DNA of 63,803 nt, the filler included, from Hausera hauseri (taxonomy: Eukaryota), in assembly GCA_046269625.1 (NCBI GenBank). It is 11 parts of 11 records of this genome, joined end to end, with 100 filler letters (N's around TTAATTAATTAA, not from the genome) between each part and the next. Parts side by side here need not be neighbours in the genome. Positions count along the whole stretch, not along the records: positions 16,418 to 21,889 come from JBJURY010246960.1; positions 21,990 to 27,618 come from JBJURY010217855.1; positions 27,719 to 32,339 come from JBJURY010500797.1; 8 more parts are not named here. One strand, given 5' to 3'. Numbering within the stretch: the stretch's first letter is position 1; every line of letters begins with the position of its first letter. The translations under genes were made by a program, and so were the position numbers. Shown here in pieces: positions 11,771 through 37,932 of the stretch. The notes beneath the pieces were generated by a model. It did not search any database. It saw nothing but the letters and a program-made list of their open reading frames with translations, and was not told where the DNA came from.

Positions 11771-14343
11771 GTGCAGTTGTAGTGGGGGGAGAAGGTGAAC
11801 GGTAACTTGGTCATTATAAAATGGAGCCACAGCCAAGACTCTGAAAACCACTGCTCTTCACTTTGTTTTATCACTGTGTAGGGGGGTTTAGAACAAAAAA
11901 AATACACCAAGACCTGCAGATCGCCGTGAACTGGGCAAACGACATTTTAACCTCAGAAGATGCCTCACAAATAGACCAGCTTACCAACGTTCCAGTGCAG
12001 CATTTAAAACATTTAGAAACCCAGGACCAAACAACGACGTAATGAGAACAGTCAAATCACGTATGCCACAGTGATATGGTCACGTGTTGAACATTGACTT
12101 AACAACAGCACCACGAAAAAAATTCACAATCCAGGATCCAATTTACGAGTTGTAGGTAACGCGGCATTCTTGATATACTAAAGCCCTGACCTGAGTAATA
12201 AACCAGGGTTCATGGGTTAAACGACCTATCAAACAATTCCATTGATGGTGATAAGATGCAGCACTGCTAACATTGCATCTTTGTCCCAGTGTCACTGTGA
12301 AGTCGGGAAATGCCGGCTTAATCTTCAGTATAAATTTGGTCAGTAGTATTAAGGAAGGAAGACGAACCTGTCAATCCAAAATGGACATGCTGAGATCTTT
12401 GTAGGACTTGACGATCTTGGTATGGGGACACCCTTATCTTTCTTTCTCTTGGGTTATATAAACAAATATCCTTCATTCCCCTCCCCTAAATAAAACAAAA
12501 ACCTACAAAACACTCTGATAATTATAGCATACTGTCTACCGCTTCAAGCAAGGTAGTGCAATTTTATGTTTGCCCCCACAGACGGTGGATTCATTATGGG
12601 ATTACTTGAACATACAGAAGACATAAAGAAACCAAAATTAACAAGGCATGCCATTCATCCCTAAAAAGAACATACATAGATAGAAACCGGAGAATTCACA
12701 CCAAACTTCAAACTCCAGTATAAAATTAGTCTTGTTTTGAGGCTTAAAAACACAGGTAAACATGGGGGCATTGAACGTAAACAAACTGTACACAGGCAGT
12801 AAGATACTCACTAAATAAATACAACAAAACCAAAATAAAGTAACTGAACACCGTGATTAATTATTGTATAACTAATAAGTTTTACTACAAGACTCTCGTG
12901 AAATACATAAATATGTATATAACAAGACCAGTCGCTAAGTAGTATACCAGCTAAAAATAAATTTCACTTCTTGACAGTCAGTATTGTAAATATGACACAA
13001 CAATATATACAATCACGTAAATATCGTCTAAAGTTAAAACTCGTAAACAGAAACAATGCTGTGACGATTTACGGCATTTACAAATGCTGTTACAATGGAC
13101 AAAAAATACTACATCTACAGCTTGTTTCTTGTCTAGCAATATTTCGTTTCTGGGTACAGGGCTACCATGTTTAGACGCGCAAGAAAGAAACAGGAAAATC
13201 ACTCCGAGCTGACAAGAAAACAACGTGTAATAAATACACAGTATATGTGTAAACAAATACATGACATTAACAGAACAAAAGCATGGATACGGTACACAAC
13301 AAGTGGAAACAATGTCTACAGGAAATGAGGAGGGGATGGAGATGTAGGGGAGGAAGAAACATTTCTACTCTGAGTTATGAGCTTGACCGTCCATACCACA
13401 CTCCAGCAGATCTCCTCCTCCGGCATATCTCCTCCTCCTTATGAATGACGACTGCAGCAGTTCTGTGTTGACTTATAATTCGTCTTGCGTGATCAGCGTA
13501 GTGATAATGTAATTAATCGTACATTACGTAAGGTTACGTAATTCTTTACCCTGAGCTCCCACGCCATGGACATCGATGCTGATTCACAATTTTCAAGGTC
13601 CTCAAACCACTTGATCCCCGTGACGTCATGATAATTGTCAATACAGCTTTCGTCCTCGCCAGTTGTTATTGAACAACATAAAAATAATCAATTAATCACA
13701 TATTTAATGAAACACATGCTGGGGAGTATGCTGCAGATAAGAAGAGACTGCTACAAAACTAAATGAGATAACACCAGAAGGAAATTAAAAAATGAACTGA
13801 AAGAGACGCAAGTAAACAAACATGAAAGTTACGAACGTAAAGAAGTGAAATAATCAAAATAAAATTAGTGAACAGGCAATAATGCTAATATTGAGTGGTT
13901 TGCACCTGTCATTACAACCAGCGATGTCATGGTCTTCTAGTGTCTGTTTCTGTCAAGTGGAAATCAAACATTAATAACCTGCAGATGACCAATAAACACA
14001 CGTGAACATCCAGTGGTGTACACTGTTACTGTAAAGCAACAAACAAATAGAGAGGCTCAACCTTGCAGAAGATATTAGAAATATTTCTAATTATAGAAAA
14101 CCACAGAAGATGCATCATGTATATAAAAATGATTATAATTATAAAACAATGAAAATTTCAGTAAATCAAGTAATCTGATCCAGACAAAAAAGTGGTTGGG
14201 AAGAACAAGAAAAACAAATTTAAGTGGGAAAACATAATAGCAACTGAGAAAGAAGGTGAGGACATTTTCAGCAAATCTATACAGAAATAAATTAATATCA
14301 ATAAAATAAACAGTTTACAGTGACTTTTCCATGAAGATTTATG

Positions 14344-14590
14344 TATCCCTTTTCAAAGGACAAGTACAATTTATTTATCCCTTTTCAAAGGACAAGTACA
14401 ATTTATTTATCCATTTTCAAAGGATAAGTACAGTTTATTTATCCATTTTTAAAGGATAAGTACAATTTATTTATCCATTTTCAAAGGATAAATACAGTTT
14501 ATTTATCCATTTTCAAAGGATAAGTACAATTTATTTATCCATTTTCAAAGGATAAGTACAATTTATTTATCCATTTTCAAAGGATAGGTA
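14344..14590. repeat. 32-bp minisatellite, ~7.7 copies
   Basis: Unit TATCCATTTTCAAAGGATAAGTACAATTTATT repeats with period 32. Confidence 0.95.
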
Positions 14591-14799
14591 AAATGCATAC
14601 ATTATTTTACACTGGAAAATTAGCACAATTAATTTCATTCTGCTTATTAACCCACATGAATATTAATAAGGTGCTTAGATACCCTGTGGCTGGAGCTGTT
14701 TCCTCAAAGTGTTAAGCTGACGTGGTAGGACCATTGACGGGCTGTGTTTGCACAGCAGGACCAGTTAATAATGCAAGGAGACCTGGTGCAACCATCTTT

Positions 14800-14955
14800 T
14801 GATTTGGGCCTTTGTGAACAATATAAACGTGGTCTCACAAGCAGGATTTGGGCCTTTGTCAAGCAGGATTTGGTGCGAACAATATAAACCTGGTCTCACG
14901 AGTAGGATTTTGGCCTTTGTGAACAATATAAACATGGTCTCACGAGCAGGATTTA
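14800..14955. repeat. Degenerate ~40-bp tandem repeat
   Basis: GGATTT(G)GGCCTTTGTGAACAATATAAAC.TGGTCTCAC.AGCA recurs about three times. Confidence 0.8.
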
Positions 14956-16317: not shown

Positions 16318-16539
16318 NNNNNNNNNNNNNNNNNNNNNNNNNNNNNNNNNNNNNNNNNNNNTTAATTAATTAANNNNNNNNNNNNNNNNNNNNNNNNNNN
16401 NNNNNNNNNNNNNNNNNCTCCATTTGATGAGCATTTTACCCCACTGTTATCTATGATTGGATTGTTACCCATTTGATTTGTTGTTGGCTGGACAAGAGTG
16501 CAAGTTGCAGAAGGTCAAAAATTTCAGTTCAAAATAGAA

Positions 16540-16900
16540 CAATACAAATAATAATAACGCATATCAAATAATAATACAAATGACGCATATCCTAAAAACC
16601 TTGAATAACACAAATGATAATGACGCACATCCTGAAAACCCGACGATTAAATCGAAATTAGAATAACATAAAACAAATGACGTAAATGGAAATTTGAAAA
16701 TAGAAATAATGAATTTTAACATATGTCTTTGGAAGAAACAAAATATTTTAAAAATAGAAATGACGTATTTTGGTCGAAATTACAATAACATAAAACAAAT
16801 GACGTAAATGGAAATTGGAAAATAAAAATGATGAATTTTAAAAATACGTCTTCGGAAGGAATAAAATATTTTTAAAATAGAAATCACGTATATCGGAAAA
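16540..16900. repeat. AT-rich degenerate tandem repeat, ~123-bp period
   Basis: AATAACATAAAACAAATGACGTAAATGGAAAT at ~16661 and ~16784, with shorter ACAAATGACG echoes upstream. Confidence 0.75.
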
Positions 16901-17484
16901 TCGAGTATTGAATCGGTATATAAGCAGGCAGTAATTTGCAAACACAACACACAAAAAATAACCATCGATAAATTTTGAAGTTATTGCTGATCAATTTGAT
17001 CGAAACAGGTCGTTTAACAATTTAAGATAAGAAACCATACAGAGTTCCAATCGAAGATACCTGCCGAGACGAAAGAAAATACACTTTGAAGATAGTTATT
17101 ATTCGATAAGAAGTATTCCCGAATATTGAAAAATCATCACGATAAATCATCAATTCATTGAATTCGAAACGTATTATGGCCCAACATCCTTTAAATCACG
17201 AAAGTTCAAATTATGAAGTTTCAACGGTTATACTATTCTATATATTTTGATCATTCATAAGATTTTCATTTTTGTTCAAGCCATCATCAAATTTTATACA
17301 TACATGAGTCCTTTGTTTGTTATAATATTAATAAATATTTTATATCTTAAATGAAGCGCATCACAAACTTGACAACAATCTGTCGTGATGTTTAAACTAA
17401 TTATGACAGGGTGATTGTATGACCGAAATTATAGTACAAGAAAGTTTGAAGGATCTTATTTACTCCTACTGGGAAGGGACACGT

Positions 17485-18876
17485 TGTTAGAATATTTTAA
17501 AGATTGAAATGGTTATTTCGTAATGCTGATGAGCACACTTATGATCGGAATCTCTTATCAATTGTACTTTGTGCAGATTAGCAACTGCAAAACGATCGGG
17601 TGTGGACAGTATTCATGGGCGATTTATATTGTGGGGATGAGAATCCAGAGTAACCGTATAACTGGATATGGATAATTTGTCTATATTGAAGGTTATTCCC
17701 AATGTTTTAGAGGGGTCGGAGTACCCATATATATAAAAGTAACTTATGTGTGTCATATATGTATATAAGTAAAGGCTCAAATTTTACTAGAATTAATTAG
17801 TGTAGTAAGGTATCTGTGAGAGAATTGATGGTTTTATAAAATAATTTCCTTTTACCCTTGTATAGACCTATCAACCAAACCGAGCTAGTATGACGTTTTT
17901 ATGATAGTCAAGAAATTCAACGGTTTTAGAGTAGCACGACAATCACATCTGATTGGGGGTATATTGTGTTGATATTGTTAATCTGATGTTAAATTGGTCG
18001 ATAGCATTTTAGGGCATGTAATTGGGGAATAAATGTAACTCAGCGATTGTAATTAAAAAGGGTTTGTCATAATTCATAAATTTTGATTGATGAATAGAAT
18101 GTCATACTAGTTTCGTTATTGAATTTTATTAGTAACTCTTATTTACTATTACAGGGTGAATACATACATCTAAAACAAAACTCATAGATATCCTACTGAC
18201 AAAACAAACTGTGATATGGAAAGGTGTGATCCTTGGAATTTAGCAGGTGAGAAAGTGTCTACAGTTCCGTTTGCATTTATAGGGGTACCTGAGACGTTCG
18301 TGGTAATGGTAAATACTGAGAATATACCGCGCAAGACAATATATGGTAGACTATGTAATACGATATCTTACTGTAGAAATACCCTCTCACAGCGAAAGCT
18401 ACGAGTATTTATAATCCCATATATCCTGAAAGCTTGAATACAGAGACAAACTTACCTTGGTGGAATTGTGAAAGTCCTGTTCGACCATCTGGTTGACTGT
18501 TTGCATAATTACTCCCCGTTTCCTTTAAACAATCGAAGTTAATAATAAATAATCAACAAATGGATTAGAAAAAGGGTACCTGAACGGATAGAAGGGAATG
18601 CTTACAACTTATAAATTAGACGATATAAAGGAATCATTTTGAAATTAAATATGACGAATGACATATGCCGAACGGTTCGTTTTAAACTAAACTGACTCCA
18701 AAGAAGAATTAATTTTTTGAAGCGGATTATCAAAGTTAAATATCTGATGATTAATGATCGGTCTAGAGGAGTATGAAGTTAATAGCATAGATAATATGAA
18801 CTCTCCTTCACAGAGACTTATAATTTATATGTGGGTGCGCAGTCAAGGTCTGAAACATCGACCCCTGTATCCAACA
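17485..18876 (+). mobile_element. Putative LTR (~1.4 kb) of a large gypsy element
   Basis: Begins TGTTAGAATA after the purine tract GGGAAGGGA (17471-17479) and ends TATCCAACA (imperfect terminal inverted repeat) 7 nt before the PBS; TATA-like run near 17730. The 5' boundary is inferred and no second LTR is present to confirm it. Confidence 0.55.
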
Positions 18877-18883
18877 TATAAAC

Positions 18884-18901
18884 TGGTGCCCCGAGTGAGG
18901 A
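18884..18901 (+). promoter_or_regulatory. Primer-binding site complementary to the 3' end of elongator tRNA-Met
   Basis: TGGTGCCCCGAGTGAGGA is the reverse complement of ...CCTCACTCGGGGCA-CCA, the 3' end of animal tRNA-Met(e) as recalled, and follows ...CCAACA. Confidence 0.85.
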
Positions 18902-18973
18902 CACCGTTAGTATGAAAAGAAGAACAATATATGAAATTTAATGAGAAAGGTTGATATTATGATTGATGTTTAG

Positions 18974-19254
18974 ATAGCAGATACGATGGACCCCAATGTG
19001 AGATTTGTTTCAATCTATTGGGAAGACGATATGCGTTGTTGCGTTGCACGCATATCATGTGTGTAAATTGCGCCGATCAATGGCTGATGAAAAGTCAAAC
19101 ATGCCCATTTTGTAGGAGAAGGACCAGCTCTTACCACTGTGCAAAAGTTACAGTCGTAGTCCTCCCAGATTATGAAGAGCAAAGGAACCTACCTGAAGAT
19201 ATGACTCCTCTTTATGTAGTAGGTCCAAATGGACTGGTGATTATGCCTATTTAG
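18974..19254 (+). CDS. RING-finger (C3HC4) protein exon, retroelement cargo 1
   Basis: CEICFNLLGRRYALLRCTHIMCVNCADQWLMKSQTCPFCR. No in-frame ATG before the RING; follows acceptor TGTTTAG at 18973. Confidence 0.85.
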
Positions 19255-19414
19255 ATATTATTAAATTTTCTCTTTCATGTTTTAAGCGAAGTTAGAGGCA
19301 ATTGCTGGAAGGAAACATAGATATTGGGTATTGTAATTAGAGGAAATAAAAGAAATAGTTATTCCATAAACTGAATAATTAATTTGATGTTGAAAATAAT
19401 CGCATTAAATTCAG

Positions 19415-19648
19415 GATGCATCATATGTAAAAAACCTCCCGAAGTCAGTAACGAAGGAAAAAAACTCATGCCCATTATGCTACCTCGTTGAAAGTATGAA
19501 ATGCCGGGAAGACTTGTTCGAGTGTGCATATTGTGGGGAAGAGGCCAATATAAGTGTTATTGTGATGGATCAAAACTGTTTTCTAATATGTTCTGTCTGT
19601 GTTTTATCGTGGGAAGATGTAGAGAAAATTAATAAATTAATTGGATAA
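19415..19648 (+). pseudogene. Decayed CxxC zinc-finger exon, cargo 2
   Basis: CIIC, then after a frameshift FECAYCGEEANISVIVMDQNCFLICSVC; follows acceptor TTCAG at 19414. Confidence 0.5.
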
Positions 19649-19705
19649 TGAAAATTTGTAATAAAATATAGTAATAGTTAATGAAGTTAGTTTTATTGAT
19701 TGCAG

Positions 19706-20121
19706 ACATTTGCCCCATCTGTCTTGAAGCAATGACGAATGAAAGGACAATATTACCATATGGACATACATATTGCCAGCCCTGCATTAATACTTGGTTG
19801 AACGAACAAAGTAACTGTCCTTGTTGTCGACGAGCCTGCACATTTTGCTGGGTGTGCCTTAAATTAGTGGCAGATAATCTGATTGTCCTATCATGTCGCC
19901 ATGTGTTCTGTCGGCTGTGTATTTTGGAGTATTTGGGATCTTGTCAGTGGTGTCCTTACTGCCTTGAATCAGTGGACTTTTACATTGCAGAAGGAATGAT
20001 CACATATTTAAATATTGATAATCGGCCATCTATAGTATTGTTAATTGATGAGGATGATGGCAGTTGGCCGGAACAGTGGAGAAATCCACAACTAAATACA
20101 TTTTTAGATTATGAAAATTAA
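19706..20121 (+). CDS. Tandem double-RING protein exon, cargo 3
   Basis: CPICLE...LPYGHTYCQPC...CPCC, then CWVC...LSCRHVFCRLC...CPYC; follows acceptor TTGCAG at 19705. Confidence 0.85.
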
Positions 20122-20179
20122 TTGTTTGTAAAATTATTTATAAATCTTTAATTTGGCTTATTAAGGACTTCCCCTCGGG

Positions 20180-20476
20180 ATGAATAGAAGGAACATGTTG
20201 GATTACGGATTTTCTGCATTTTCTTACACTACTACAGCAGATAACAGTTATTCTATATATGACTTAAAAGGAACCTTTACTTATTTGGGAAAAGAGTGTG
20301 CCATTTGCTTGAGCGAATGCTCAATGGATCCGATAGAATTAACTATATGCAAACATCAATTCTGTCGACAATGCATTAAAGGGTGGTTTGCAGTCGAGAC
20401 TTTATGTCCAAAATGTTGCACTAACAATACATTATTTAGATATAAAAATGCTTATTATACTGTAAAAAATTTATAA
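20180..20476 (+). CDS. RING-finger protein, cargo 4
   Basis: ECAICLSEC...ICKHQFCRQCIKGWF...CPKC; AATAAA at the stop. Confidence 0.85.
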   Translation: MNRRNMLDYGFSAFSYTTTADNSYSIYDLKGTFTYLGKECAICLSECSMDPIELTICKHQFCRQCIKGWFAVETLCPKCCTNNTLFRYKNAYYTVKNL

Positions 20477-20531
20477 ATAAATGTTTATGTAAATCTAACA
20501 ATGTTATTGAATATATTACATTTTAGCCGAA

Positions 20532-21750
20532 ATGACAAAGGTCAAAGAATACAAATTCCGAACACCGAAACAGTATGAATATGTTAAACCAGCACAATCT
20601 AATATAGCGCAATATATATTACATTATCAGAATAGACAATTCGGACCGGCATCATTCATTAAAAAACTGATAAGCTACTTCAAAGTTATAGTACTGGATA
20701 ACTCCATGAGAGATGCTCAAAACAGAACAATACCGTTCCTGAAATACCCAAATTTGCCTATTCCCGAGGAACTAGCGCAAGAATATGCTAAAACAGGATT
20801 ATTCAGAACTATAACAGGACAAATTAGATGTATTTATTGCCAAGGAGAATTTCAATATGAATAAACGAAAAATCGACCAAATAAAACACATAATAAATCG
20901 CATGCCACTTGCCATTATTTATTAAATCTCGATGTCAGTGATATACCGCTCACAGATACATTTGTCAAAAGACCTGATCTTGACAAGGATACGAACTACA
21001 ATACAACAGTGTCGGTAAAGGTAATTTACTCAACGGATAATACAGCAGAGGAAAATGCATATTGGATTTCAAACACAGTGCAAAAGAGAAAATTAACTTT
21101 CAATGGAAAAAAGAGAGATTGAACATCTAGCCGAAGAAGGATTAATATTGATATCTAAAGAAGAAAAACAGTATGTCAAATGTACTATATGCTTACAAGA
21201 AAAGTATTGGTCTGAAGACCTTGATCAACAATGTCCAAAAATATTACACTCCAACAAGTGCGAATATTCAGTAAACAGAATCTTCGATAAACACACCAAG
21301 AGACAATGCATAATACAATTTAATATCGGAAAACTATATGAATGTTATCAAGATAGTCCAGTAGCTACATCGGTACTATTAAGACATCCTGCTAAGCCAG
21401 AAAATATATTACAGTATATCAAATGTCGGACAGACACTCAGCCAGACTGGTCACCAAATGTGTTCGAATTATGTCAGAATTTAAATTTTATCCCTCCAGA
21501 TAAAGAAAGAGAACCCGAACGAAATATTCTTGACAATCTTTATCTTTGTGACTTGGAATGCGTGATCTGCTATGTGGATGTAGCACAAGTTATTTTCTTA
21601 CCTTATGGTCACCTGAAAACATGTGAGAAATGTTCAAACCAAACAATGAATTGTCCAGTTTGTAGGAGTATTATAGAATGATGAGTGACGTATTTTCAGT
21701 TTTCAGAGGAAAATAGTGAAATAACTTTGGCAGATATGGACCTTGATTAA
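20532..21750 (+). pseudogene. Inhibitor-of-apoptosis-like protein (BIR-BIR-RING) with stops and a frameshift, cargo 5
   Basis: BIR-like 1: RTIPFLKYP...YAKTGLF...IRCIYC...H...C; BIR-like 2: LAEEGL...VKCTIC...W...H..KC; IAP-type C-terminal RING ECVICYVDVAQVIFLPYGHLKTCEKC...CPVCRS. Confidence 0.85.
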
Positions 21751-21851
21751 TAACTAATATAAATTTATTTGAATAAATATTATTTAGTTTGTATGAATTT
21801 GTTGTGATAAAGTTGAATAAATTTATTGTAGAACCATCGGTTATCGACAAT

Positions 21852-21889
21852 ATGACTCTAGCCAACCTTAATGAGTGGACAGTTCAAGT
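21852..21889 (+). CDS. Start of cargo 6 (homolog of 29406-29894), cut by the gap
   Basis: MTLANLNEWTVQ versus MTLADLDRWTTQ at 29406. Confidence 0.75.
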
Positions 21890-21989
21890 NNNNNNNNNNN
21901 NNNNNNNNNNNNNNNNNNNNNNNNNNNNNNNNNTTAATTAATTAANNNNNNNNNNNNNNNNNNNNNNNNNNNNNNNNNNNNNNNNNNNN

Positions 21990-22219
21990 TTTTTAAATGT
22001 AAGGGAATCAATCTCAAACAGACATACTTGCAGTTCAATAACTACTTGCAGGCGTATGAAACCGGTTACAGCAGTATGGTAGACCAAGAACGAATTGGTA
22101 CTAAAAACCACCAGCTCATGATAATCAGCTCAAAAGAGAAAGCACTGGATCCCTTCGACGACAAACGCCTCTGGGTTGATAAAAACCCAAGTGTAGCTTA
22201 CCGACATTACTCTATATAA
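21990..22219 (+). pseudogene. C-terminus of a protein-primed family B DNA polymerase (Polinton-type)
   Basis: KCKGINL...NHQL...KALDPFDDKR...SVAYRHY, homologous to the pPolB C-termini near 22922 and 32445. Confidence 0.8.
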
Positions 22220-22296
22220 TTACTGTTCATTATGTACATATACTTAATAAATATTTCATTCTTTACCGTCTTTGTTTTATTACTAATGAGTGCGTG

Positions 22297-22578
22297 GGAA
22301 TAGTGAAACCCATTCTAAGCCAGAAAATGATTTGTCCACAACGAAAATTTAAACAAATCTTTTACGCGCCAAATTTAAATTTTTCACATACCTAAAAACC
22401 ATACAGTTTGCCCGCTTGTGTGTATCCACTTTCTCACTGTGTGCCTCCCATCTCCGCCCTATTAACCATGCATGTGTGTATCATTTTTGTACCCCATGAC
22501 TCATCCGCGAACCAAATTTTTTCTCTTCCCTGGAGGAGGGGGAGTATTGGCGTGATTTGCTCACTTCTACCTACTTCT
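22297..22578 (-). repeat. Polinton-type terminal sequence (putative TIR) just downstream of a pPolB stop
   Basis: Aligns over ~270 bp with 42957-43223; reads inward from AGAAGTAGGTAGAAGTGAGCAAAT. Confidence 0.7.
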
Positions 22579-22921
22579 ATGTCAAAGGTCATTCTGATGG
22601 GAGAAAGAAGATATTTAATGGCGCATTTCCAGAATTTCGAATATGTCAATATGAATGTAACAAATTGGTAGTTATACCAAGGAATATTACATGTATTTAT
22701 CGCGAACATGGTTCACATTGTGCTTATTAAAGTGTTTAGCGTTATGCCAAATTTATATTGTTACTAAATAAATGTGTTATGAAATTAGTTGGTCTTAATC
22801 CATATAGTAGTTACTTAGTTTTACTTGACCTTATCCTATATTCCACATACTTGATCAAGAAGGCAACACGATATTTCTATACAAGATTTATGAAACAAAG
22901 AATAACAAAGAATAACAATAT

Positions 22922-25900
22922 TTACAATGCCACATGTCCGTGAGATAGTGTATGGTTTCCATCGCTTAGGATCTGCATCTTGTCATCCATCCAATCTAGG
23001 CTTTGCTTTTGCAGTGTTACTGTTTGGATGTTATGATCCCTAAATTATATCCTTCTCATTTCCGACATGATGTGAGCCTACTCCTGCAAAACTCTCACAT
23101 AGTCCTCAAAACTAATCTGCTTGGCCAATGTAGACCTTTGAACGCCCTTGCCTCTCTTTTTAATCTGGCCACATACGTCTAGAGCATACATTTTTGACCT
23201 AAGGGCTACAATTCTCTAGATGATTGCTCCATTCACCTCGTCTCTGAATTTCCAAAGGACTTTCTTATTGGCAATTGAATAGTTGGGATGATCCTTTGGA
23301 TAGTCCGAGGTATCCATGTGTTAAGCCAATTGGGCAAAGTCCTTATAAATATCCTCTGTATGGATCTGATAGATGAAGCTATCAGTATCCATATACATTA
23401 GCTGCATGGAGATGAACTTGGGCACCATGATATCATAATAAAATCTGTGCATTAGAGTCTTTGACAGGTTGAGGATTGCCATACCCACATATAAGGGCTT
23501 GTTGAATACCAATGCTGTTTTTAGCATATGGATGCAGACCAAGTTCTCCGTATATATGGTGGTGCTATAAAAGTTAGGCTTTGCAATAAGCTTCTTTGCC
23601 CGCTTCCAGTCACATACTATCTCAATGTTGATCCTATTGCGGATATTCTCCATAGTCTCGCCAAACACAGAGTTGATTTAAAGCTTGAACTAATCCTTCT
23701 CAAAGTCGTTCTTGGCATTAGTCCACAGCTTCGTATTGAGATCTATATATGACTGCAGCCACATGGACTGGCTGAACTGCAGGGATCTATGGATCTTGGT
23801 AATACGAAGTCCATATCTAATTGCCTGCTGGAGATTGATGCAGTGAACTACATACCTCTCCGTATTACCCAGATGACAGAGCAGCTTTCTCTCCTTTCCA
23901 CTGGGCGGAGGCCTGCTCTCAGGGAGGGAAGGCAGCTGTTGATACCTTGCGTGGATGGAAGCCGGACATTACATATCTACCTCCAGTATGTATCCCGTAT
24001 CTCCAGTGGGATCTAGGTCCAGTATAGGGATGTCTCCAGGATTCTCGTCCCATTTGAAGTTATCGTATGGCAGTGGGACGCTCATTGCCCATCCATACAA
24101 GTATATGAATATTCCTTTGTTGAGTCGTACTCCGTCATATACTTGTTGTTGGCCTCACTATACCGGTGAATGGCCTGGCATATTCCGCCTCTAATGCCTG
24201 TTTCAATTATAAGAATCATGTAGTAATCCTCAATGATCTGGAGCCTAATACTAGTGTTTTTAATAAAGTTATATAGTCATAGGGAAACACGCCTTTCCTC
24301 TTGACTAGGTCAAATGCAGTGGGGAAGAACCGCTTCGTCTCCTTGAGTTCTTCTGCAGGGAGGTTCTTCACTAAACTATCCGGTGACGAGCTTATGAAGC
24401 GGAAGCTCTTTATGAAGCGAAGTTTAACCCATATGCTTGGTGAAAGTGATGTATTTTTCATCACTATTGGGAACGAAATCAATGTTCCCATCAATGTTGC
24501 CCAGTTCCCGAACAATGAAGTGGGAATCATAGCCACTGAGTTTGTGGAACACTACAGGCACATATGTACATGTTTTGCAACGCAGATTGCAGTTATTGCA
24601 TGCTGCGCCCCGATATGTGCCTGTAAAATGGCAATGATCCTTGACTTTATGATTTTCCTTGGTGAATGATTTGTCGCACAAGTAACATGTTGTTGCCCTG
24701 CGCCATTCTTTAGCTTGTTTCCACGACATGCTCATATGATCCTTATGCTGCTGAAGCATGTTTTCAAGCTTATGAGCCATATCTTCAAGTCGCTTCATGA
24801 AACGTGCTGCTTCGTCTTGAACCCTGAATAGAAATGGTTCACTGTCCAGTCCGTTGGCATACATGCAATACGATGAGAGTTCATGATATTGGTATGCCGT
24901 TGTGCTTCTATGTTGAGGACTGGGATTGCATCTGTGAATTGGCCGGAGAATAGCTTCAAAGTCGCAATAGATAACTATTGTGACCTTGATCTTCTTCTCG
25001 AACTCCTTGAATTCAATATAGACCTCCTTGGGAAATTCTGGTCTTACACAGTAATTGTTTTTGCAGCACATTTTGTGCTCTGAAAGCTTGTCCACTGCTG
25101 TATCACCACTGAAATGGGAAAAGCATCGTCTACATATTTCTATTTGCCCATGATGATTAGTAATTTGGAATCTGACTGGACGCTCAAAATTCTTGATCCA
25201 AACATAATGTTTCTTTTCTCCATCGTCTAGTATGAGCAGATCCCTATGATCTTCCAATTCAGTATCATATATCTGCAGGGGATAAAATTTGTCCTCCTCA
25301 TCTAATCCAATGATGCTGATGGAAATGTTGTTGATTCGGCTGAACTTCTTAATTTCATCTATGGATGGAGGGAATGTGATACATTGGAAATCATAGTTGT
25401 GCTTCAGATCATTATATAGCCAAACTCGATCTGCTGCATGTTTTTGAACCAGTACGAGTTTTGATAGAATGGCATATATGAAACACTTGTTGTCATTATT
25501 ATGGGCATTGACACGTGATTTTTATTAGCAATCCATTCCGACAGCTGAATATAAGAACTGTCCCGCATTGGAGAGTACTTGTAAACTACACAAGCAAACT
25601 CTTGATGGTTGCCAGAGTCCATCCGCTTTTCTTACTCTGGCTCTCATCCGCTTCACGGATCAGCTTTGTATGCTTTTCATGCAGCCATTCTACTACATTG
25701 GTGGCTTCAAAAATGGGTATATTTCTGGTCTTGAAGGCCCTTTTGGACTTTTCGCCATCAACATTGACGTATGTGGCCTCAAGTTTCATATTAGCCTTAA
25801 TGACCTTGAGCTCAACTATGTTGTCCTGGAGAATCCCCTCTGTTTCTTCCTCTGTGTACTCCAGGAACTCCTTGATGTTTGTTTAGCAAGTTGCATGAAT

Positions 25901-26558
25901 GACATATTTTCGGCATTTTTTCTTTAATGCTACAGCATCAACTGGCCGCTCTCTGTGACTCTTTGATGGAGCCGGTACGCTTGATGCGTCGGATGCATAT
26001 TATAGTCCTGCATCTGGCTTTACTGCAGGCTGTGATACCGCAGGCTGTGGTACTACAGGTACTGCAGGTTGTGCAACTGGCTTATGTTTATTAAAGATGA
26101 TCTTCCTTGACTTTGACGCGAAGTCAGTCAAATGATGATTGTGATCTTCATAAAACTGTATGTATTCTCCATCACATACAGTCTCACATCCTGGGCATAT
26201 ATAATAAATGATCCTGTTGAATTTGTGTCCATAATAGCTCCTCATGGCATTGTGGCAATTCTGAGGGTTGTATACTGCACATGTGCAATACACATATGAA
26301 CTGCATCTTTGATTTTCCTTTAAAGTCGTCATTGGTATATTGGTACTGAATATGTTTTTTCGACTTGGTGAAGGAAATCAAGTGCTGTTAATAAACATTG
26401 TAAAAGTCTTTATAATAGATTTGGCACACCACCTCACATGTATGGCATATGTAATACTAAATCCTGTTGTACATATGGCCAAAGTACTTCTTCATAACAT
26501 TGTGGCAATTTTTCGGCTCGTGGATTTGAAACAAACATTCGCTGTAAAGTTTGCACAT
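22922..26558 (-). pseudogene. Polinton/Maverick-type pPolB polyprotein (Cys/His modules, N-terminal domain, endonuclease VII-like Zn motif, exonuclease, polymerase), decayed
   Basis: HYVWIKNF, ICRRCF, IYCDFE (Exo I), CYLC...DHCHFTGTYRGAACNNCNL, KRKGVFPYDY, LYGWAMS.PLP, NSVFGETMEN, YMDTDSF, DDK..GH. The in-frame copy 52540-53106 shows that ORF 26000-26332 is the N-terminus of the same protein. Confidence 0.9.
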
Positions 26559-27718
26559 CTAAAATCAACCAATTATTTGAGGTGCACAATTAAAAAAGTC
26601 ACCATTCGTTGAAGTGATTTTGCAAATAATGAAATATATTGCCATATCACCATGTACTGCCTCGCTTATTGATAGGCTTTAATGCGCTTTTGTTTTAATG
26701 CATCAGTTAAATTAAATAGAAGGCGGCACCAAATTCAAGCAGGTTTTCGACCATGGGGAATCGATTGAAGCCATCATATTCTTCGAATAATGCATGCTTG
26801 ACCGAGTTTTCGAGTTCAAATAGATAAGTATTCGACTTGTAAACTCGAACTTGAATACCTGGTGCCATATTCCGATTCAACATGGATAACTTCCTATCCA
26901 GCCCACTACTAGATTTATTGATTTCCGCTTTACTGGGCTTTAAATGCAGATTTTGTTTAATTTGAAATATTGATTTTATATCTATATAATACATTTTCAC
27001 GGAATAATTTTTATGCATTAGGGAGTTTTCATATATGCCGAATCGATTGCCGCTGTTGGGTTTTTCAAATAGTTCGATATTCTATATTCGAGCCAAAAAT
27101 ATTCGAATTTCGAATATTTGACTCGAGATTCAAGATCACCATACTCAATTTCCTATCTGTCCCCGGTAATTATAATATCTAATTTTGCTTCCTTAGGACC
27201 TAAAAAATCTATGCGCGTTCTCCATCAGTTGCACTTTGGATTGATATTATTCGAAATCGGCTCCATAAATTTAAATTCTAACTGCACATTCATATAGTAC
27301 ATCGTATTTCCAATCGATTGCACCCGGTCACGTGTCCTAATAATCAATATCGGAAATATCGGAAATGCCATATTATTGATTTTTGCACACTTGCACACAT
27401 GTTTTTGCACTGCACACCACATATCAAAGTGTACCTCGATGTGCTCTATCTACCTGCACTTGTCCCCAATCGATTCCATCAATCCTACGCTGCACAGTGA
27501 CCAAAATATAAAAAGTGAAAAAGTGCCTTGGCAACCGTATCCAAGATAATACCTTACTCGAGTATTGCACTGATCGATAGTACATCAAGTACTGCACCCG
27601 CCAGTATATGTGCCATATNNNNNNNNNNNNNNNNNNNNNNNNNNNNNNNNNNNNNNNNNNNNTTAATTAATTAANNNNNNNNNNNNNNNNNNNNNNNNNN
27701 NNNNNNNNNNNNNNNNNN

Positions 27719-28390
27719 TGTGGGTCGCTCCGAGGTTCTGCCGGGACAATGGTTCTCTCTGTGGAAAGACGCTGGACATGCCATCACACATCACTCTTTC
27801 TCCGTCTCAGGCTCCGTCCTTTTGAATGTCTGTATCTCCGCGTGTCTTCTGAGGGAAAATGCCTATCACATGGATAGGTTGACGCTGAAGGGGAAAAGCG
27901 AGCGCTGCAATGAGAGACGCAGAGTGAGAGATATGAAGCGCTGGGAGATAACTGTCCTTTCAGAGCCTCGACATCAAACTGTTGAACACATCTGCAGCTA
28001 ACCTGAACCTGCAAAATATTCCGTTTATCAGCCTTTGTGGGCTTTTTCTGGGAGTTTTTCGGACAGGATGGCCATCCTGCGATAAGCGTTTCACATTCGG
28101 TGGTAGCCAGAAGGCTGCTGAGGCTGCTGGGAAGTCTAATCAGTCTCTTTCCACCTGCCTCCATCGCACTCTTTCAAGTGAGTTACTGATCCACTTCTGG
28201 ACAGAAATCATATGTTTATTTTGTTTTCTCTCTCGCAGCAAACTTTTGCCTCAAAAATTGAATTTGATGCCCAGGGGCAGGATGGAAAATTGGGCGTACA
28301 TTGAACAGCCGTATGAAAACACAAAACATAAATGACAACACATACAGCATGAACAGACAGGTTCAAAATATCATATTCAGGCTGTGAACG
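27719..28390. other. GC-richer, vertebrate-like genomic fragment joined to the AT-rich element
   Basis: Abrupt composition change near 28390-28415; possible minus-strand terminal exon after TCATTGCAG reading RSLFPFSVNLSM*. Gene not identified. Confidence 0.45.
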
Positions 28391-28415
28391 AATTGTCACC
28401 CTAAATAATAAAGAT

Positions 28416-29304
28416 TTATGAAAAATCAATCAAAAAGGATACATAAGAAATTATTTCCCACCTGTCCTTACTTATTAAATATCAATGTTAATAACATACC
28501 ACTTACGGACAATTTTGTTAAACAACCTGATCTGGATCCGGATACCGATTATGATGCGGCAATACCAGCGCGTATAGTTTATGTAGTGGATAACACAGCT
28601 AAAGATAATGCATATTCGATTTCAAACACGGTGCAAAAGAGAAAATTTACTTTTAAAGGAAACAAGAATATCAAACATTTAGACAGACAAGGATTGATAT
28701 TGATATACAAGGAAGAAGCACAATATGTTAAGTGTACTATATGTCTAAAAGAAACATACTGGTTGGAAAATATCGACCAACGATGTCCGAAAAGCTTACA
28801 CACTAACTTATGTGAGTATTCAATATACAGAATTCCTAACAATCATACAAAGAGACGATGTCGAGTGCAATTCGACATTGGAAATTTATATGAAAGTTAT
28901 CAAGATAATCCAGTAGCTACGTCAGTAATATCTCGAAATCCAACAAAACGTGAATATATTTATATCAATACATTAAATATAGAACTGAAACTCAACCAGA
29001 TTGGTCATTAAATGTATTTGAATTACTTCAGAATCTGAATTTTATTCCTCCAGAGAAAGAAAGGGAACCTGGACGAAATGTACTGGACAACCTTTACTTA
29101 CGCGATCTAGAATGTGTAATTTGTTATGTAAACGTATCACAAATTATCTTCCTACTATGTGGTCATTTAAAAACATGTGAGCTATGTTCCATTCAAGCAA
29201 CAGATTGCCCAGTTTGTAGAAGTATTACAGAAAGACGAGTGACTTATTTCCAATTTCCGGATAGAAATAATAAAATAATCGTATTTGATATGGTTATTGA
29301 TTAA
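28416..29304 (+). pseudogene. Second, diverged copy of the IAP-like gene (end of BIR1, BIR2, RING)
   Basis: Colinear with 20870-21750: IPLTD.FVK.PDLD, SNTVQKRK.TF, YVKCTICL, YQD.PVATSV, LNFIPP.KEREP, LECVICYV...GHLKTCE.C...CPVCRS. Confidence 0.88.
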
Positions 29305-29405
29305 TAACCAATGTTACTTTGATTTTTGTGAATAAATATTTATTAGTACAAATGTGTTATATCAAATTAAATAAACGTATTATAGCATGTAGGAATATCG
29401 ACAGT

Positions 29406-29894
29406 ATGACACTAGCCGATCTTGATAGATGGACAACTCAATTGTTAACCATAAGGGACCAACCACCTAAAGTGGCGTATGGATGGTATAAATCGTACAA
29501 CGACCCTCTACTCGACAGAATAATTGAGTTGGTATATTCCAAGTATTTATAAATGATCGCTGTTAAAATTGATGAGAAGGTCGAGTGCGAAACCCTACCA
29601 CGAGTGATTGCCAATATGTATCAAATGCAACTAATCGATGATAGTTATTACCAAAGAATTCAATATTTGATGTTAATACTAAAAGAAAAGGAGGAAGAAG
29701 TAGAAAGGAAATGCACAGATATTGGTCATACAATTTGGACTTGCTCAAGTTGTGGAAAAAATCAGTCTAATACAATTTATTTACCATGTGGACACATTAT
29801 CCATTGTAAGAACTGTATTCCTAAAGATTTCATGATATCAAAATGTACTGTGTGTGAATTGCCTATAGATGAAATCTGTACTATATACACATAA
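29406..29894 (+). pseudogene. Helical domain plus IAP/MDM2-type RING protein, cargo 6 (one in-frame stop)
   Basis: ORFs 29319-29552 and 29553-29894 share a frame; CSSC...YLPCGHIIHCKNC...CTVC. Confidence 0.8.
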
Positions 29895-29929
29895 TAAAAT
29901 GGCTAGTTATTTAGATTTTTCCAACAACA

Positions 29930-32339
29930 ATGGCGTAAGGAAATCAGTACAATACCCGATCTCGAGGACGACTATTACAGAATCAGACAAAAGCAATAAA
30001 TGAAATTAACTCGAACGAGGAAGATATTAACTTTGCCAATAACACAGACACTTCAAGCACAGCTTCGGCTCCAGACATATCAATCGATAATAATTCATTA
30101 CAATTATCTCCTACTCCAGTGCAACATCATTGGGTACGAGGAGCTAACGGGAGGCAAAGGCCATCTCGAGGACAGTACCGCAATACATCTAACTCCAGAC
30201 AATTAACACAGAGAATAATTAATCATGAAATAGATTGTCAAAAACGTCACGAAGCACACCAAATAATTGAGGATGATCTAAGAGCAAGACAAAAGTGGAC
30301 AGATAACCATATCCAAGAGCTGGCGGACGAAATACACAATATACCTCGACAAAGAAAAGACGATATAATAGACTCGGATATCGTGAATAATGGGTTAAGA
30401 TTGGATAGAGTCAAAGAAAGAACTGCGCAAATAGAACAAAGGGTGAATGATATAAATTTAAATGAATTGGCAGGGAGAAGTACTTAGTTGGAACAGAATG
30501 TAAACACCAATACTAGACAAATATTTAATTTACGATATCAAACTGAAGATTGCAGGACTATGATACAAAGAAATTAAGAACAGATTGATAATAACGAAAG
30601 ACAAGTAAGACAAAGGATAGGCGAAATACAAGATCGAGTAGCAATTATAGTAGATGAACAGGAACAATTTTCAGGAAGAAAATAATTGTATCAGAAATTG
30701 AATATAGATATTAACACGGGGAATAGACCAGTTAAATGAACGGGTTGGACAAGTAAGGGTAGAGGAAATGATATCTCGACGACAAGAAGAAGTACAATCA
30801 CCAGAGTTTTCAATAGACGTAGATTCTATACCTTGTTAAATTTCTGACACTGATAGTAACAACATGTATCCGCAAGGGAATAACCAAGGGCCAGCGGCCC
30901 ACCGCGAAGAGTATGGTTGTAACAACGTCGGTTGTGGTTTACCAAATGGTGATGAGAGAAGAAGGGAAGAAAAATACCAGTTACTGCCTTGTCTTCAACC
31001 ATACGAAGGACGAGTATCAGAGTTGGAAGACTTCCTAGATGAAAACGATTCTTTGGCTACAGCTATGCATTGGGATGATGCAAATAAAATATCCATGTTA
31101 CCAGTACATGTGAATAGTGATTTCAGAACGGCAATAACCCGTCTACCTAGATTGGATAATGAAACTTGGGCTCGTTATAGAGAAAAAATTTTACGAAATC
31201 AACAGGTCAATATACAAGAAGATAGATATTTAAAATTTCAAAATTGTAAACAGAAACCAAATAAGGAAGTTTTAACTTATATTAACAGGTTCAAAACGAC
31301 AATGAATATATATTTTGGTCCTAATGTGGATGCTTGCAGCGCTATGATTATGAAGCAGTTTGTACCTGGGGTCCTACCACCCTTACGAGAAGGAGTTAAA
31401 TTTTATACAGCTAACAATATTAATGAATTAATTGATTATACACGAAAAATGGCGACTCGAGTGGACGAAGCACCTTTATGGACTAATCAAACACAAGTAG
31501 CAGCAGTAGCTACAACACCACAATTGGTACGACCCTACGTACCAAATCGTAGTAGTTCACCTTGGAGAGACCCTTCAAGAAGTCAAAGCCCTAACCAACA
31601 AAGTAATAATACACCACAGCGAAGTAATACCCCAGAAAGAGGAAATTATAGTCAATCACCCAGGAACTATAACAATAACCAAAGAGATACACAATACCAA
31701 CGAAACAGAGGAAACTATGATGATCGACCACGAAATAATACAGGATATGACAGAGCACGAGTTTATTCAAGAGACAGAAATGATAACAGAAATATATTTC
31801 TTAGCAGAGAAAAATAGAACAATGACCGAAATTCCAATCGTTACGAAAATAAAAATAATCAAATGAGCTCATACTATAGACAATAAGATAGTCAAACATG
31901 ATATCCACGAGACGATAGCCGAACGCCATATCCCAATAATCGCTCAGAAGGTGCAAGACCTAGCTATTTTAATGATAGACGAAATGAAAGTCGTGAGATA
32001 TTTAGAAGGGGATGACAGCCGAGAACGATATGGTGGATTTAATAGAAATGACAGCAGAGAAAGAAATAACCAACAAGGTGATAGTAGAGATAGGTATAAT
32101 TCTGATAACAGAAACAGATATAACGATTCAAGATCAGGAAACCTCGATAGAAGACGTGATTATACGCCACCTCGACGAGAATCGGAGATATAATAGGAAT
32201 ACTAGTCCATATCCACCAAGAAATCGAAACCAAACTCCTTCCCCGAGACCAAATAACAATAACGACAGATACACTCGACCATTAGATTATGATAACAGAC
32301 GAAATGATTCAGCAATAAATAAAAGCATTTCCGCACCTA
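29930..32339 (+). pseudogene. Long Gag of a large Ty3/gypsy element (YNTRSR N-terminus, coiled coil, capsid domain, R/N/S/D-rich tail), cut by the gap
   Basis: Capsid-like LQPYEG...LEDFL...WDDANKI...TWARYREKI...KQKPNKEVLTYINRF...MKQFVPG in 30864-31817; upstream coiled-coil ORF in frame with the ATG at 29930. Confidence 0.78.
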
Positions 32340-32444
32340 NNNNNNNNNNNNNNNNNNNNNNNNNNNNNNNNNNNNNNNNNNNNTTAATTAATTAANNNNN
32401 NNNNNNNNNNNNNNNNNNNNNNNNNNNNNNNNNNNNNNNGTGTT

Positions 32445-35400
32445 TTATTTCAACCTCCAATGTCCATATGTCCAACTCTTATTCCACCCCACCCACTTTC
32501 ACTTATCATCGTTGCATTACAAAACGACTTTCGCACTAGTTACTGTGTACAGCTGGTGCTCAATCGATCGGATGATCGTTTGAGAAACAACAGCCTTTGA
32601 TTGTCCTTCTTCTTCTTCTTCATAGATACGGGGATAATCACCGTGGTCGATTTCCATCTGTCTCAGCTGGACTCCTTTTGCCCGCATTTTCGGTCCACAG
32701 TCCGTCAGAAGACTGTAGCACTTTGGGCTTAGGAATATCCATTCCTGATACTGAATCCGACCTTCACTTTTATCCTTGAAGCAGCCGATTTTGTTGGTGA
32801 TCCAGGTGCTGTACAACAGATGATCCGGTGGGTAGTTTGACGTGTCCAGTAGTCCATTTGCCATCATTTGCCGGAGCTGTTGGTCGCGATTAACGTTTTT
32901 CTACTCAAGGAAAAAGCTGTCTGTGTTATCGGCAACGATACTGATCTCACAGCCGTCGAACATTTGCCTGTAACGTGCCAAGTCGCGATACAGGAGCTTG
33001 TACATTCGCAACTTGCTCAGGTCTAATACCACTTGTCCGACGTAACTTAGCCGGCCTTGAACGACTTCTTCCCAGTTTAACAGCACTGCAACCAATCCAT
33101 GGGCAATGTGCACTGACCGCCTGAACTGAACCTTGTTGGTGTACTTAATCAGCTGCTTTTCGTTGTTACATAGGCACACATTGAGTCCCTTTTTGAGATT
33201 CTCTACTGTTTTGCCATAGAAAGAATTATTTTTCAACTTGTAGTAGTTCTTTCTGAACTTTGTACAAGCTGCAGCTCGTTTCTCTCAATTTCCGTCAATG
33301 TATGCCTTGAATATCGGTGCCTGATTTAAGCGGATTGCGAGATGCAGCTGTGTGACGCGTACACCGGGCTGCATGTAAAACTGCAGTAGACGCCAATAAA
33401 CCACGTAATTTGATTTGAGTTCATGTGTCATGAGCAGTTTCTTTACTTTTGAGCCCGGCGGACATTGGCTGATTGGTGCCACGGGTAATTCGTCCAGAGC
33501 GTCGTGCAGCTAATCTGGTACCAAAAGATCGACTTCCATTAGGTAGCCTACTGAGCTGCTTTCTGTCGTGTTTGCTGGCATACTATCCAGAAATGTATCC
33601 ACTTTTTGTTTGTCTATTATCCATTCAAGTGAACCATACGGCAAGGGTTGCGAAAGCGCCCAGCCGTACAGGTTATTAATATCGATGTACAACATTGACG
33701 TTGTATCATCGTCATCACTGGTTAGATGATGCTTGTTCACAAATATCATGCCGCCACGAATGCCAACGTAAAACAGTCGGTACATTTCCGTGTCTTGTAG
33801 CAGTTCAATGTCCCGACCCAGTGTTGTTAGTGCCGATGCACAACTCATTCCCGGTATTGGGTAAAAGTTGAGAAGTTCCAACCTATCTTCCTCCAACGCT
33901 TTAGCCCGATATGTCTGAGACACATCGGCTAATAGGTACACATTGAGCTTTAGATACTGAAGCATGTAGTCCAACATGTTACTACAACCGAGCTCTGTCC
34001 AAGATTCCTGTGCTCTCTGATATTCATCTTCTGTGATACCTGTCCATAGCGGCGGTAATTCCTCTGTTGTCCGGAGTCGCTAATATGACACGGCAAAGTC
34101 ATACGGGAATATGCCTTTGCGGCGTGCAGTATGTGTGGGGAACCGGGTAAGTGTTAGCGGCACCTCCGACAAGGCATTTACGAGCTTTGCTAGAGACTCA
34201 TTGAGGAATTGCAATGAGTCAAGAAACCATACCTGAAACCGGTTTATGCGTTCCGATAGGGACAGGTACTTCTCCATCGTTTTTGGGATTATGGATAGCT
34301 GCCAGTGCGGAAATACGTTTATGGCCCATTTCAGAATATGGTGACAGTTATTACCCCTTAAGTTATAAAATATCGCCGGCAGGAATGGCCGCACACGTCT
34401 TGCCAAATTGCATGCATTGCATGCTGCTCCCAAGTATCGATCGGTAAAATGGTCGTGATCCGGTACGAGCCGTTCCGGTAATATTTTGTTGCAAAGGTAA
34501 TATTCGTCGGTGGCTGCAAACGTCAGGCGTTCATCTTCATCTGTCCAAATCAGGTCTTTGGTGCTGTTATTGCGATACCACGGTGCCATTTCCGTTTCTA
34601 CTATCGTTTCCAAATGTTGCAGAAAATCACGCACACGAATCCAGCCGTGAAATGCGTAATACTGCGGCTGACCGACCGCTTTTATTGGTATAATCAACAT
34701 ATCAACGGCGATTGGAACGTGTTTTTGATCATACACGTTGTGCCGTGGTAAAATTGTTTGAATATCGGCATATACCACATACGCCGAACTGTCTGTTTTT
34801 GACCAATCTGTAAACCTGAGTTCCTTTTTGACGGGCATGATATACATTGTGGCTCCCAGTGAATTTTGTCTGCACAGAGTTACATGTTTCTCCCGTGATG
34901 TTTCCGACCTGAACTTATGCAGACATACAGGACACCATTTACATTTAATACGCTTTTGAACAAATTGATGGTGATTCATGTTAAGTAGTCTGTCCAAGTT
35001 GGTTACTGTCACGTAATGAAATTTATCTGCTTGCTCCAGTAGCAACAAATTTACTACTAAGTTACCATTTGGGTTCCGACTTCGATAGAGTATATCTACA
35101 TGAGGGTTTTCGTAAATTTCTGCATCCGTCGATATTTCGAGGACTGTGTTGTACCGAAACACGTTGATTGTCAGTGTCGGATTACGTCGTTCAAAAGCCG
35201 GAATGGATTTCAGTTTCATCGGCATTTAGTTTTTATCGAAATCCAATTCGGAAAAATATTTCTGATACTGTTTTGGACAAAATGCACTATGTCTGTCCAC
35301 TTCGTCGTATTTTAATACCACCAGAATACTGTAAAGAAAATAGTATTTATCGTTGGTATTTTTTACTTTTACTACCGCCAGAGACTGCTTCAGAGCTTCA

Positions 35401-35792
35401 GGTGTCGGTATGAATGATCGTCCAGACAAAAGTATCGCATCACTCGACTTTGTTATGATAAAGCCGGGAGTGACATTTTCCATAATTCGCCATCAACTAC
35501 CCTTTTCAGTTTAGTTGACGATTTTCTCTTTGAGCTTTTTGCCTACGTCGGCAATAAAATTTTCAGCATATGGTATGACTCGATGAGACAGGTACCATTG
35601 TTTCCTGTCACCTTCCAAATTTTCAAATTCTGCAAGTGCATAATATTGCACTTTGCGGTAGTGTTGTTGGAATTTGGCCACCTCTATTTCCAACCGGTTA
35701 CGCACGTGAGCGGGTACATCCTTCAGTTGCGTTGCTGTTTTTGCCGTCATGTTCACCTTCATGTCTACGTACGAAGAAATATGTGGGGCCAA
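32445..35792 (-). pseudogene. Second-family Polinton-type pPolB, decayed
   Basis: FERRNP.LTINVF, HYVTVTNLDRL, WCPVCL, VVYADIQ, DHDHFTDRYLGAACNACNL, FLDSLQFL, RKGIFPY, YIDINNLYGWALSQPLP, KNNSFYGKTVEN, DNTDSFF. Confidence 0.9.
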
Positions 35793-37741: not shown

Positions 37742-37932
37742 GGAAGCTGATCGAGTCGGGCGAGTTTGAGAGGAACCTGTACGGGACGAGCAGCGACTCT
37801 GTGCGGCAGGTTATCAACGCCGGGAAGATCTGCCTGCTGTGTCTGCACACACAGGTAGGTGGCGCTCTGGAGGCGCCGCTCCAGGCCCAGGCGACCTCTG
37901 ACCCTCTGCCCCCATCCCCAGGCCCTGAAGGT
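37742..37932 (+). CDS. MPP5: MAGUK p55-family guanylate-kinase-domain exon (37742-37854), 67-nt intron and start of the next exon; GC-rich, vertebrate (teleost-like)
   Basis: [38 protein letters not shown]|ALKV matches MPP5/PALS1 as recalled ([33 protein letters not shown]); canonical CAG and GT splice sites. Confidence 0.85.

Follow-up and report, generated by a model that had tools for sequence, protein, structure and literature searches.

Two decayed copies of a probable Ty3/gypsy-type retroelement family with a RING/IAP gene cassette ahead of gag in Hausera hauseri

Results

Overview of the element

We analysed a window of 63,803 nucleotides from Hausera hauseri (assembly GCA_046269625.1), consisting of 11 contigs joined by N linkers whose borders were checked and are as stated. 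Contig 3 (16418–21889, JBJURY010246960.1) and contig 5 (27719–32339, JBJURY010500797.1) are likely two decayed copies of one Ty3/gypsy-type long terminal repeat (LTR) family, with the inferred order primer-binding site (PBS), six cargo genes, gag. They probably represent a Ty3-type retroelement family carrying a six-gene cassette of RING and inhibitor-of-apoptosis (IAP) genes before gag. This family with its PBS–cassette–gag order is supported because a PBS, a Gag, colinear copies, many look-alike contigs and purifying selection were all found. Somewhat more tentatively, we favour the reading that the cargo of these two copies is made by splicing a short leader upstream of the PBS to six last exons. 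The element was read from contigs 3 and 5, from the DNA sequence only. An initial annotation had described a Ty3/gypsy element in which RING genes and an IAP lie between PBS and gag; of this, the cassette, the PBS and Gag were recovered, but the proposed LTR limits, a second BIR domain and a kinship to the Burro elements were not.

Contig 3 aligns colinearly with contig 5 along 1036 bases, of which 72% are identical. The alignment spans the 3′ part of the IAP gene, the following spacer and the start of cargo gene 6, and it reaches the last base of contig 3. Contig 5 had been taken for a diverged colinear copy reading IAP, cargo 6 and Gag, which holds except that only the 3′ part of the IAP is present. 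Stops and frameshifts mark both copies as pseudogenes. As annotated initially, the intervening contig 4 (21990–27618, JBJURY010217855.1) is unrelated to the element, as seen by Pfam profile search and contig-versus-contig comparison.

Public sequencing runs contained many similar sequences: an alignment to contig 3 at ≥80% was obtained for 3667 contigs from run X1 and for 491 from run X2, most of them being less than 95% alike. In both runs there are contigs that connect the PBS with the RING of cargo 1. At several of the breaks in the window copy, nearly all aligned run contigs read otherwise. The picture is one of a large, diversified repeat family, in which the cargo would have been kept under selection while single copies decayed.

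Cargo genes

The cassette had been described as six zinc-finger/E3 genes. Six cargo genes are indeed present (Table 1), but only five are RING genes; the remaining one, ORF2, is a Cys-pair gene without a Pfam family above cut-off. The RING calls in ORF1, ORF3 (two), ORF4, both IAP C-termini and cargo 6 all lie above the Pfam cut-off. One Cys ligand of the first RING of cargo 3 is absent in the contig-3 copy. For cargo 6, an unbroken relative (P0012) shares 52% identity over 99%, and in the contig-5 copy the acceptor-like AG lies as far from the ATG as in contig 3. No close relative of cargo 6 or of the IAP was found in viral_contigs.

The IAP-type gene

Cargo 5 of contig 3 is interrupted by stops at 20862, 21679 and 21682 and by a frameshift near 21110. 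It had been read as BIR-BIR-RING. The first BIR, read with an X at its stop, scored 25.1 bits (Pfam cut-off 22.9) and has the canonical spacing C-x2-C-x16-H-x6-C; its best PDB match was NAIP (E 6e-5), with DIAP1 and XIAP also among the matches. The C-terminal RING likewise stands: it matched zf-C3HC4_3 with 39.9 and 43.3 bits, and its top PDB matches were cIAP1 (E 9e-7), cIAP2 and XIAP. The middle domain found no profile match as a second BIR, and its spacing deviates (C-x2-C-x18-H-x3-C); it might nevertheless be a degenerate BIR.

The ratio of nonsynonymous to synonymous change (dN/dS) between the two IAP copies, a comparison suggested with the initial annotation, was 0.152 (bootstrap 0.09–0.23; 285 codons, break codons left out), and the differences were distributed 66/46/120 over the three codon positions. 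Judged from these copies, the IAP evolved under purifying selection. Like cIAP, XIAP, DIAP1 and the baculovirus IAPs, the protein combines one BIR of canonical spacing above cut-off with a C-terminal RING, which is nearest to those of cIAP1, cIAP2 and XIAP. Unlike these BIR and RING proteins, it has a non-canonical second domain without a BIR match, and its sequence is remote from the IAPs found in protein collections. When the C-terminal half was used as query against longer proteins, none of 124 candidates was homologous, which is weak evidence. An AlphaFold model of the contig-5 IAP piece, computed without alignment, was unusable (pLDDT 31).

On contig 5, about 700 bases of GC-richer DNA (47–52%; 27719–28415) stand in place of the IAP 5′ part. 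A six-frame Pfam search of 27719–28417 gave no match.

Gag and its relatives

The start of gag lies 36 bases after the stop of cargo 6 on the same strand. The stretch 30864–31817 matched Retrotrans_gag with 26.7 bits (cut-off 24.1), in agreement with its earlier assignment to Gag. A Ty3-type gag is present, but it begins at 29930 and not at 30864, and the 317-aa ORF annotated there covers the gag middle only. The copy carries many stops and three frameshifts. Among 1.84 billion representatives, one close gag relative was obtained, an unbroken protein of 1339 aa (P0001) with 62% identity in the core; positions 29930–32311 are colinear with its residues 1–815. The nearest gag representatives carry Retrotrans_gag or Ty3_capsid, and the Atlas neighbours are gag families (0.94). 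With the gag middle piece as query, none of 520 candidates of near length was homologous, and no close relatives of P0001 were found in metagenome_contigs or viral_contigs. P0001 contains no CCHC knuckle (residues 561–900 are free of Cys) and gave no match to BIR, MATH, BCL2 or ankyrin.

Residues ~940–1040 and ~1225–1339 of P0001 form two copies of a domain of ~100 residues, 33% alike over 43 residues. By eye these repeats resemble a (dead) DEDDh exonuclease. No test supported this reading: Pfam as well as pairwise comparisons with the loci L001 and L002 (see below) and shuffle tests gave no support, the best Atlas hit was unrelated (0.84), and the hhalign probability was 2.5%. The AlphaFold model of the C-terminal part, again made without alignment, could not be used (pLDDT 33).

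Primer-binding site and upstream region

The PBS at 18884–18901 agrees with the tRNA-Met PBS listed in Table 2 of PMC1084362 at 16 of 18 bases. A scan of metagenome_contigs with the 20-mer at 18884 returned two loci, L001 and L002, in each of which it stands directly before a gag-like start; the pattern was not found in viral_contigs. These loci appear to be a fair control that the 20-mer is a PBS. The published match and the recurrence of the 20-mer before gag-like ORFs uphold the PBS proposed in the initial annotation.

L001 (210–229, the PBS, and 1714–3732, minus strand) and L002 (381–400 and 2010–3524, minus strand) belong to another LTR-type family with an identical 20-base tRNA-Met PBS before the gag start. 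The two top PDB matches for the profile of their upstream long ORF were DEDDh nucleases (E 0.18 and 0.69), and this ORF recalls rotifer ORF3 exonucleases.

The LTR limits that had been set at 17485 and 18876 were not confirmed: one X1 contig crosses 17091–17881 unbroken and has another letter at 17485. The loose end of an X2 contig runs on through the ~25 bases that immediately precede the PBS, from which we conclude that at least the PBS-side end of the upstream region belongs to the element. A purine run of fewer than 10 bases (17471–17479) precedes the proposed LTR start, and X1 differs at two places. A polypurine tract at 17471–17484 before an LTR at 17485 found no support in the X1 contigs.

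Splice-site and polyadenylation pattern

The initial annotation of the cassette had overlooked a pattern of splice sites that hints at how the six genes are expressed. All six cargo genes of contig 3 start at a T-rich, acceptor-like AG in phase 1 (18973, 19414, 19705, 20165, 20526 and 21831), that is, the AG splits the codon after the first base of the cargo frame. When the six spacers were shuffled 20000 times, acceptors sharing any one phase with an open frame arose at all six once and at five or more seven times. The last AG with a T at position −5, a rule that needs no threshold, lay in phase 1 at 6/6 cargo genes compared with 97/365 control ATG sites. Between the acceptor and the first domain, which is the RING in cargo 1 and the first Cys pair in cargo 2, no in-frame ATG is found in cargo genes 1, 2 and 3, and these genes therefore need an ATG from upstream. 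AATAAA occurs in five of the six spacers (P about 5e-4 by spacer shuffles) and overlaps the stop twice.

A candidate shared leader exon of 92 nt lies upstream of the PBS. Its bounding acceptor (18154) and donor (18246) are the best-scoring ones of the 2.5 kb upstream, and the donor agrees with the consensus at 8/9 positions. Taken together, the phase-1 acceptors, the lack of an ATG in cargo 1–3, the AATAAA signals and this exon point to a single leader exon that is joined by splicing to any of six alternative last exons, each of which has a stop and a polyA signal of its own. Other donors were discarded: those at 18894 and 18905, after the PBS, are in phase 0 and 2 to the only upstream ATG, and the donor at 18949 would leave a 24-base intron.

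Table 1. Positions of the element's features in the window
Feature	Position	Strand	Description	Evidence
Tandem units	16652–16896	+	Two AT-rich units of ~122 bp, on the left side of contig 3	Either flanking host DNA or part of the element's 3′ internal region
Putative LTR of the initial annotation	17485–18876	+	Includes candidate leader exon; AATAAA at 18028 and 18544	Imperfect TGTTAG..CCAACA ends
Candidate shared leader exon	18155–18246	+	92 nt; ATG 18216, 10 codons plus one base (phase 1)	Acceptor and donor scores
PBS	18884–18901	+	Complementary to tRNA-Met 3′ end	16/18 bases as in published PBS
Cargo 1	18974–19254	+	RING gene; phase-1 acceptor 18973	zf-RING_2, 40.3 bits
Cargo 2	19415–19648	+	Four CxxC pairs; phase-1 acceptor 19414; frameshift near 19460	Cys spacing
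Cargo 3	19706–20121	+	Double RING; phase-1 acceptor 19705	zf-C3HC4_2, 60.7 bits, two stretches
Cargo 4	20166–20476	+	RING gene; phase-1 acceptor 20165; AATAAA overlaps stop	zf-C3HC4_2, 29.4 bits
Cargo 5, IAP-type	20527–21753	+	BIR, divergent Cys/His domain, IAP-type RING; phase-1 acceptor 20526	BIR, 25.1 bits; RING matches
Cargo 6, start (contig 3)	21832–21889	+	58 bases, cut by contig end; phase-1 acceptor 21831	Alignment to contig 5
IAP 3′ part, second copy (contig 5)	28418–29304	+	Frameshift near 28960	Alignment to contig 3
Cargo 6 (contig 5)	29386–29894	+	N-terminal domain and IAP-like RING; stop at 29550; AATAAA overlaps stop	zf-C3HC4_3, 35.9 bits
gag (contig 5)	29930–32339	+	Long, Ty3-type: coiled coil, capsid core, Arg/Asn/Asp-rich repeats; cut by contig end	Retrotrans_gag; alignment to P0001

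Discussion

Evidence against the proposed element and its splicing

Several observations weigh against the element as we read it. The order from PBS to gag rests on two copies that are 28% apart, with no single record spanning it, and X1, P0001 and P0012 may share a source with the window or stem from close kin. Only one element end is present on contigs 3 and 5, which contain neither a second LTR nor a target-site duplication; pol is absent from both contigs (contig 5 ends inside gag), and no D[ST]G motif occurs in P0001 up to its end. Among the X1 contigs there is neither a break nor a depth step at 17485. Summed X1 depth, which is not copy number, was 12–45 upstream of the PBS versus 130–9460 on the cassette. 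The would-be second BIR had no Pfam BIR match at E≤1 and no PDB match at E≤10.

The splicing scheme, deduced from genomic DNA, meets objections of its own. The acceptor threshold of 4.5 equals the weakest observed site and the sites were noticed by eye before scoring, so that the 1-in-20000 figure flatters the pattern; by chance alone, six equal phases have a probability of ~0.005. In the cargo-2 spacer the highest-scoring AG is in phase 2, and in the contig-5 spacer before cargo 6 the last-AG rule also picks phase 2, the AG at the homologous distance being in phase 1. The best AG upstream of gag is weak (3.4) and in phase 0, in an indel-rich copy, which places gag outside the scheme. A leader exon of this kind appeared in 129/3000 block shuffles, and a donor such as 18246 alone in 11% of shuffles.

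Alternative explanations

The same retroelement might instead carry its cassette in the manner of a DNA-virus gene block, with a TATA-type promoter and a polyA signal for each gene and the phase-1 AGs as chance or relics. Large DNA viruses commonly carry BIR and RING genes, the spacers are short and AT-rich (33–165 bases, 73–85% AT) with AATAAA/TATAAA boxes 21–60 bases before several ATGs, and cargo 4, 5, 6 and gag have an ATG of their own. Cargo 1–3, however, show no in-frame ATG downstream of the acceptor, it is improbable that six phases agree by chance, and viral_contigs contained no close relative of Gag, cargo 6 or the IAP; we consider such an arrangement unlikely. Spliced-leader trans-splicing of a polycistronic operon, which is known from nematodes and flatworms, would account for the short spacers and for each polyA signal being followed by a T-rich acceptor, which is the layout of trans-spliced operons. 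Phase 1 would not be imposed by this route unless the leader carried an ATG plus one base, whereas the flatworm spliced leader ends in AUG, in phase 0, and a phase-matched cis donor is present upstream, making trans-splicing very unlikely here. A different objection concerns the element itself: the cassette could be a gene block in its own right, either mobile or belonging to the host, for instance in a composite DNA transposon, that lies beside a PBS in one copy and beside gag in the other. The missing record from PBS to gag, the lack of pol and the thinly covered LTR without confirmed limits would fit this. It is nonetheless quite unlikely, given that the PBS and cargo 1 are linked on contigs from both runs, that gag follows the cargo-6 stop after a same-strand spacer like the others, and that colinearity extends to the last base of contig 3.

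Membership in, or close relationship to, the planarian Burro family is highly improbable. Burro (GYPSM1) is gypsy-like and present in many copies, and carries BIR, a RING-containing AIR1 motif, MATH and BCL2-like domains, with an accessory ORF upstream in one species (PMC6431247). In that description, however, Gag forms the N-terminus of a polyprotein of ~4900–5100 aa which holds the BIR, 2–3 CCHC knuckles follow the gag motif, and an env is present (PMC6431247). In the Hausera copies the IAP is encoded separately and closes with its own stop ahead of gag, and the relative P0001 ends at 1339 aa without a BIR or any of the CCHC knuckles. The kinship to Burro suggested in the initial annotation was not borne out on these grounds.

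Comparison with known elements

Burro is still the nearest precedent for the content of the family described here, both being gypsy-like and multicopy with BIR and ubiquitin-system domains. The Burro domains are proposed to meddle with host apoptosis and ubiquitination (PMC6431247). Unlike Burro, the Hausera element has six separate small genes before a CCHC-less gag and signs of exon-type expression. MATH, BCL2-like, ankyrin, dUTPase and env were all absent from the parts on contigs 3 and 5 and from P0001, outside of which the 3′ half of the element lies. The element would work like Burro in its cargo and is not filed as Burro.

Foamy viruses have their major splice donor in the R region of the LTR, upstream of the PBS, where it serves all subgenomic RNAs and also suppresses premature polyadenylation (PMC5035957). 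A donor upstream of the PBS is likewise inferred in our case; on the other hand, foamy viruses are vertebrate retroviruses with accessory genes 3′ of env and a single LTR polyA site rather than one per gene. Captured extra ORFs in Ty3/gypsy elements are also known from bdelloid Vesta and Juno, LTR elements whose enzymatic ORF3 is typically expressed from spliced messages (PMC5408684), and from plant Ogre, with 1–2 extra ORFs (PMC6431247). According to the parts of these papers covered, they differ in having one or two extra ORFs instead of six, and RING/IAP cargo is not reported there. Our literature search, of incomplete coverage, retrieved no paper in which RING/IAP genes are described as separate units that lie between PBS and gag.

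Proposed mechanism and implications

Scanning ribosomes presumably could not serve six ORFs and gag. In the shared-leader scheme that we favour, a promoter in the upstream (LTR) region would drive a single transcript. The leader, with its ATG at 18216 and the donor after 18246, would place the same first ten residues on every cargo product, and splicing at a given acceptor would activate the polyA signal that follows the exon in question. Unspliced RNA might pass all internal polyA signals and serve as genome, by analogy with foamy viruses; spliced messages, being without the PBS, would not be copied. Going by their domain families, the IAP may keep a cell with an active element from (caspase-driven) death. 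The RING proteins may act as ubiquitin ligases on host restriction or signalling proteins, or as decoys of such ligases.

To our knowledge, it is rare for a retrotransposon to bear more than one or two accessory genes, and such genes hardly ever precede gag. We would give roughly even chances to the broader idea that an undescribed invertebrate lineage of 'complex' retroelements is represented here, with a six-gene ubiquitin-ligase and anti-apoptosis set before gag, an LTR leader and six separately polyadenylated last exons forming a plug-in cassette that accepts any domain with a phase-1 acceptor, and purifying selection acting during spread. If this is true, a transposon would, in the manner of large viruses, counter both the death of host cells and the host's protein-level defences, and its route to this would be independent of the Burro polyprotein. 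The shared-leader design, if correct, would account for both the gain and the expression of cargo; it also poses an RNA-processing puzzle, as full-length RNA must get past six polyA signals. The design predicts six splice junctions, from donor 18246 to acceptors 18973, 19414, 19705, 20165, 20526 and 21831.

Other features of the window

No tRNA genes were detected in the whole window by ARAGORN, and none of 8 window ORFs looked up letter for letter in the protein collection was present there. Contig 1 contains an intronless cytoplasmic dynein-1 heavy chain (3802–10470, minus strand) with an open frame of 2223 codons, which abuts a gypsy fragment at its end. It scored 3429 bits against the human protein, 2688 against that of Dictyostelium and 1400 against that of yeast. 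The host is an animal, as the human match is by far the best.

Related decayed pieces with a Pfam endonuclease VII domain occur at 21990–27618, 32440–37932, 41859–42099 and 51501–53121. By eye they resemble Polinton/Maverick DNA polymerase B regions, and those of contigs 4 and 10 are 79% alike. Other, ordinary gypsy fragments with short gags (2–3590, 54429–57605 and 57707–63698) have no blastn kinship with the cargo-bearing element; contig 11 holds two tandem pol copies that are 80% identical. A unit of ~210 bp forms a tandem array at 43216–47129, its units being about 78–81% alike. Fragments at 10777–11946 look by eye like a non-LTR retrotransposon (RNase H and reverse transcriptase pieces), and short tandem repeats lie at 14337–14954.

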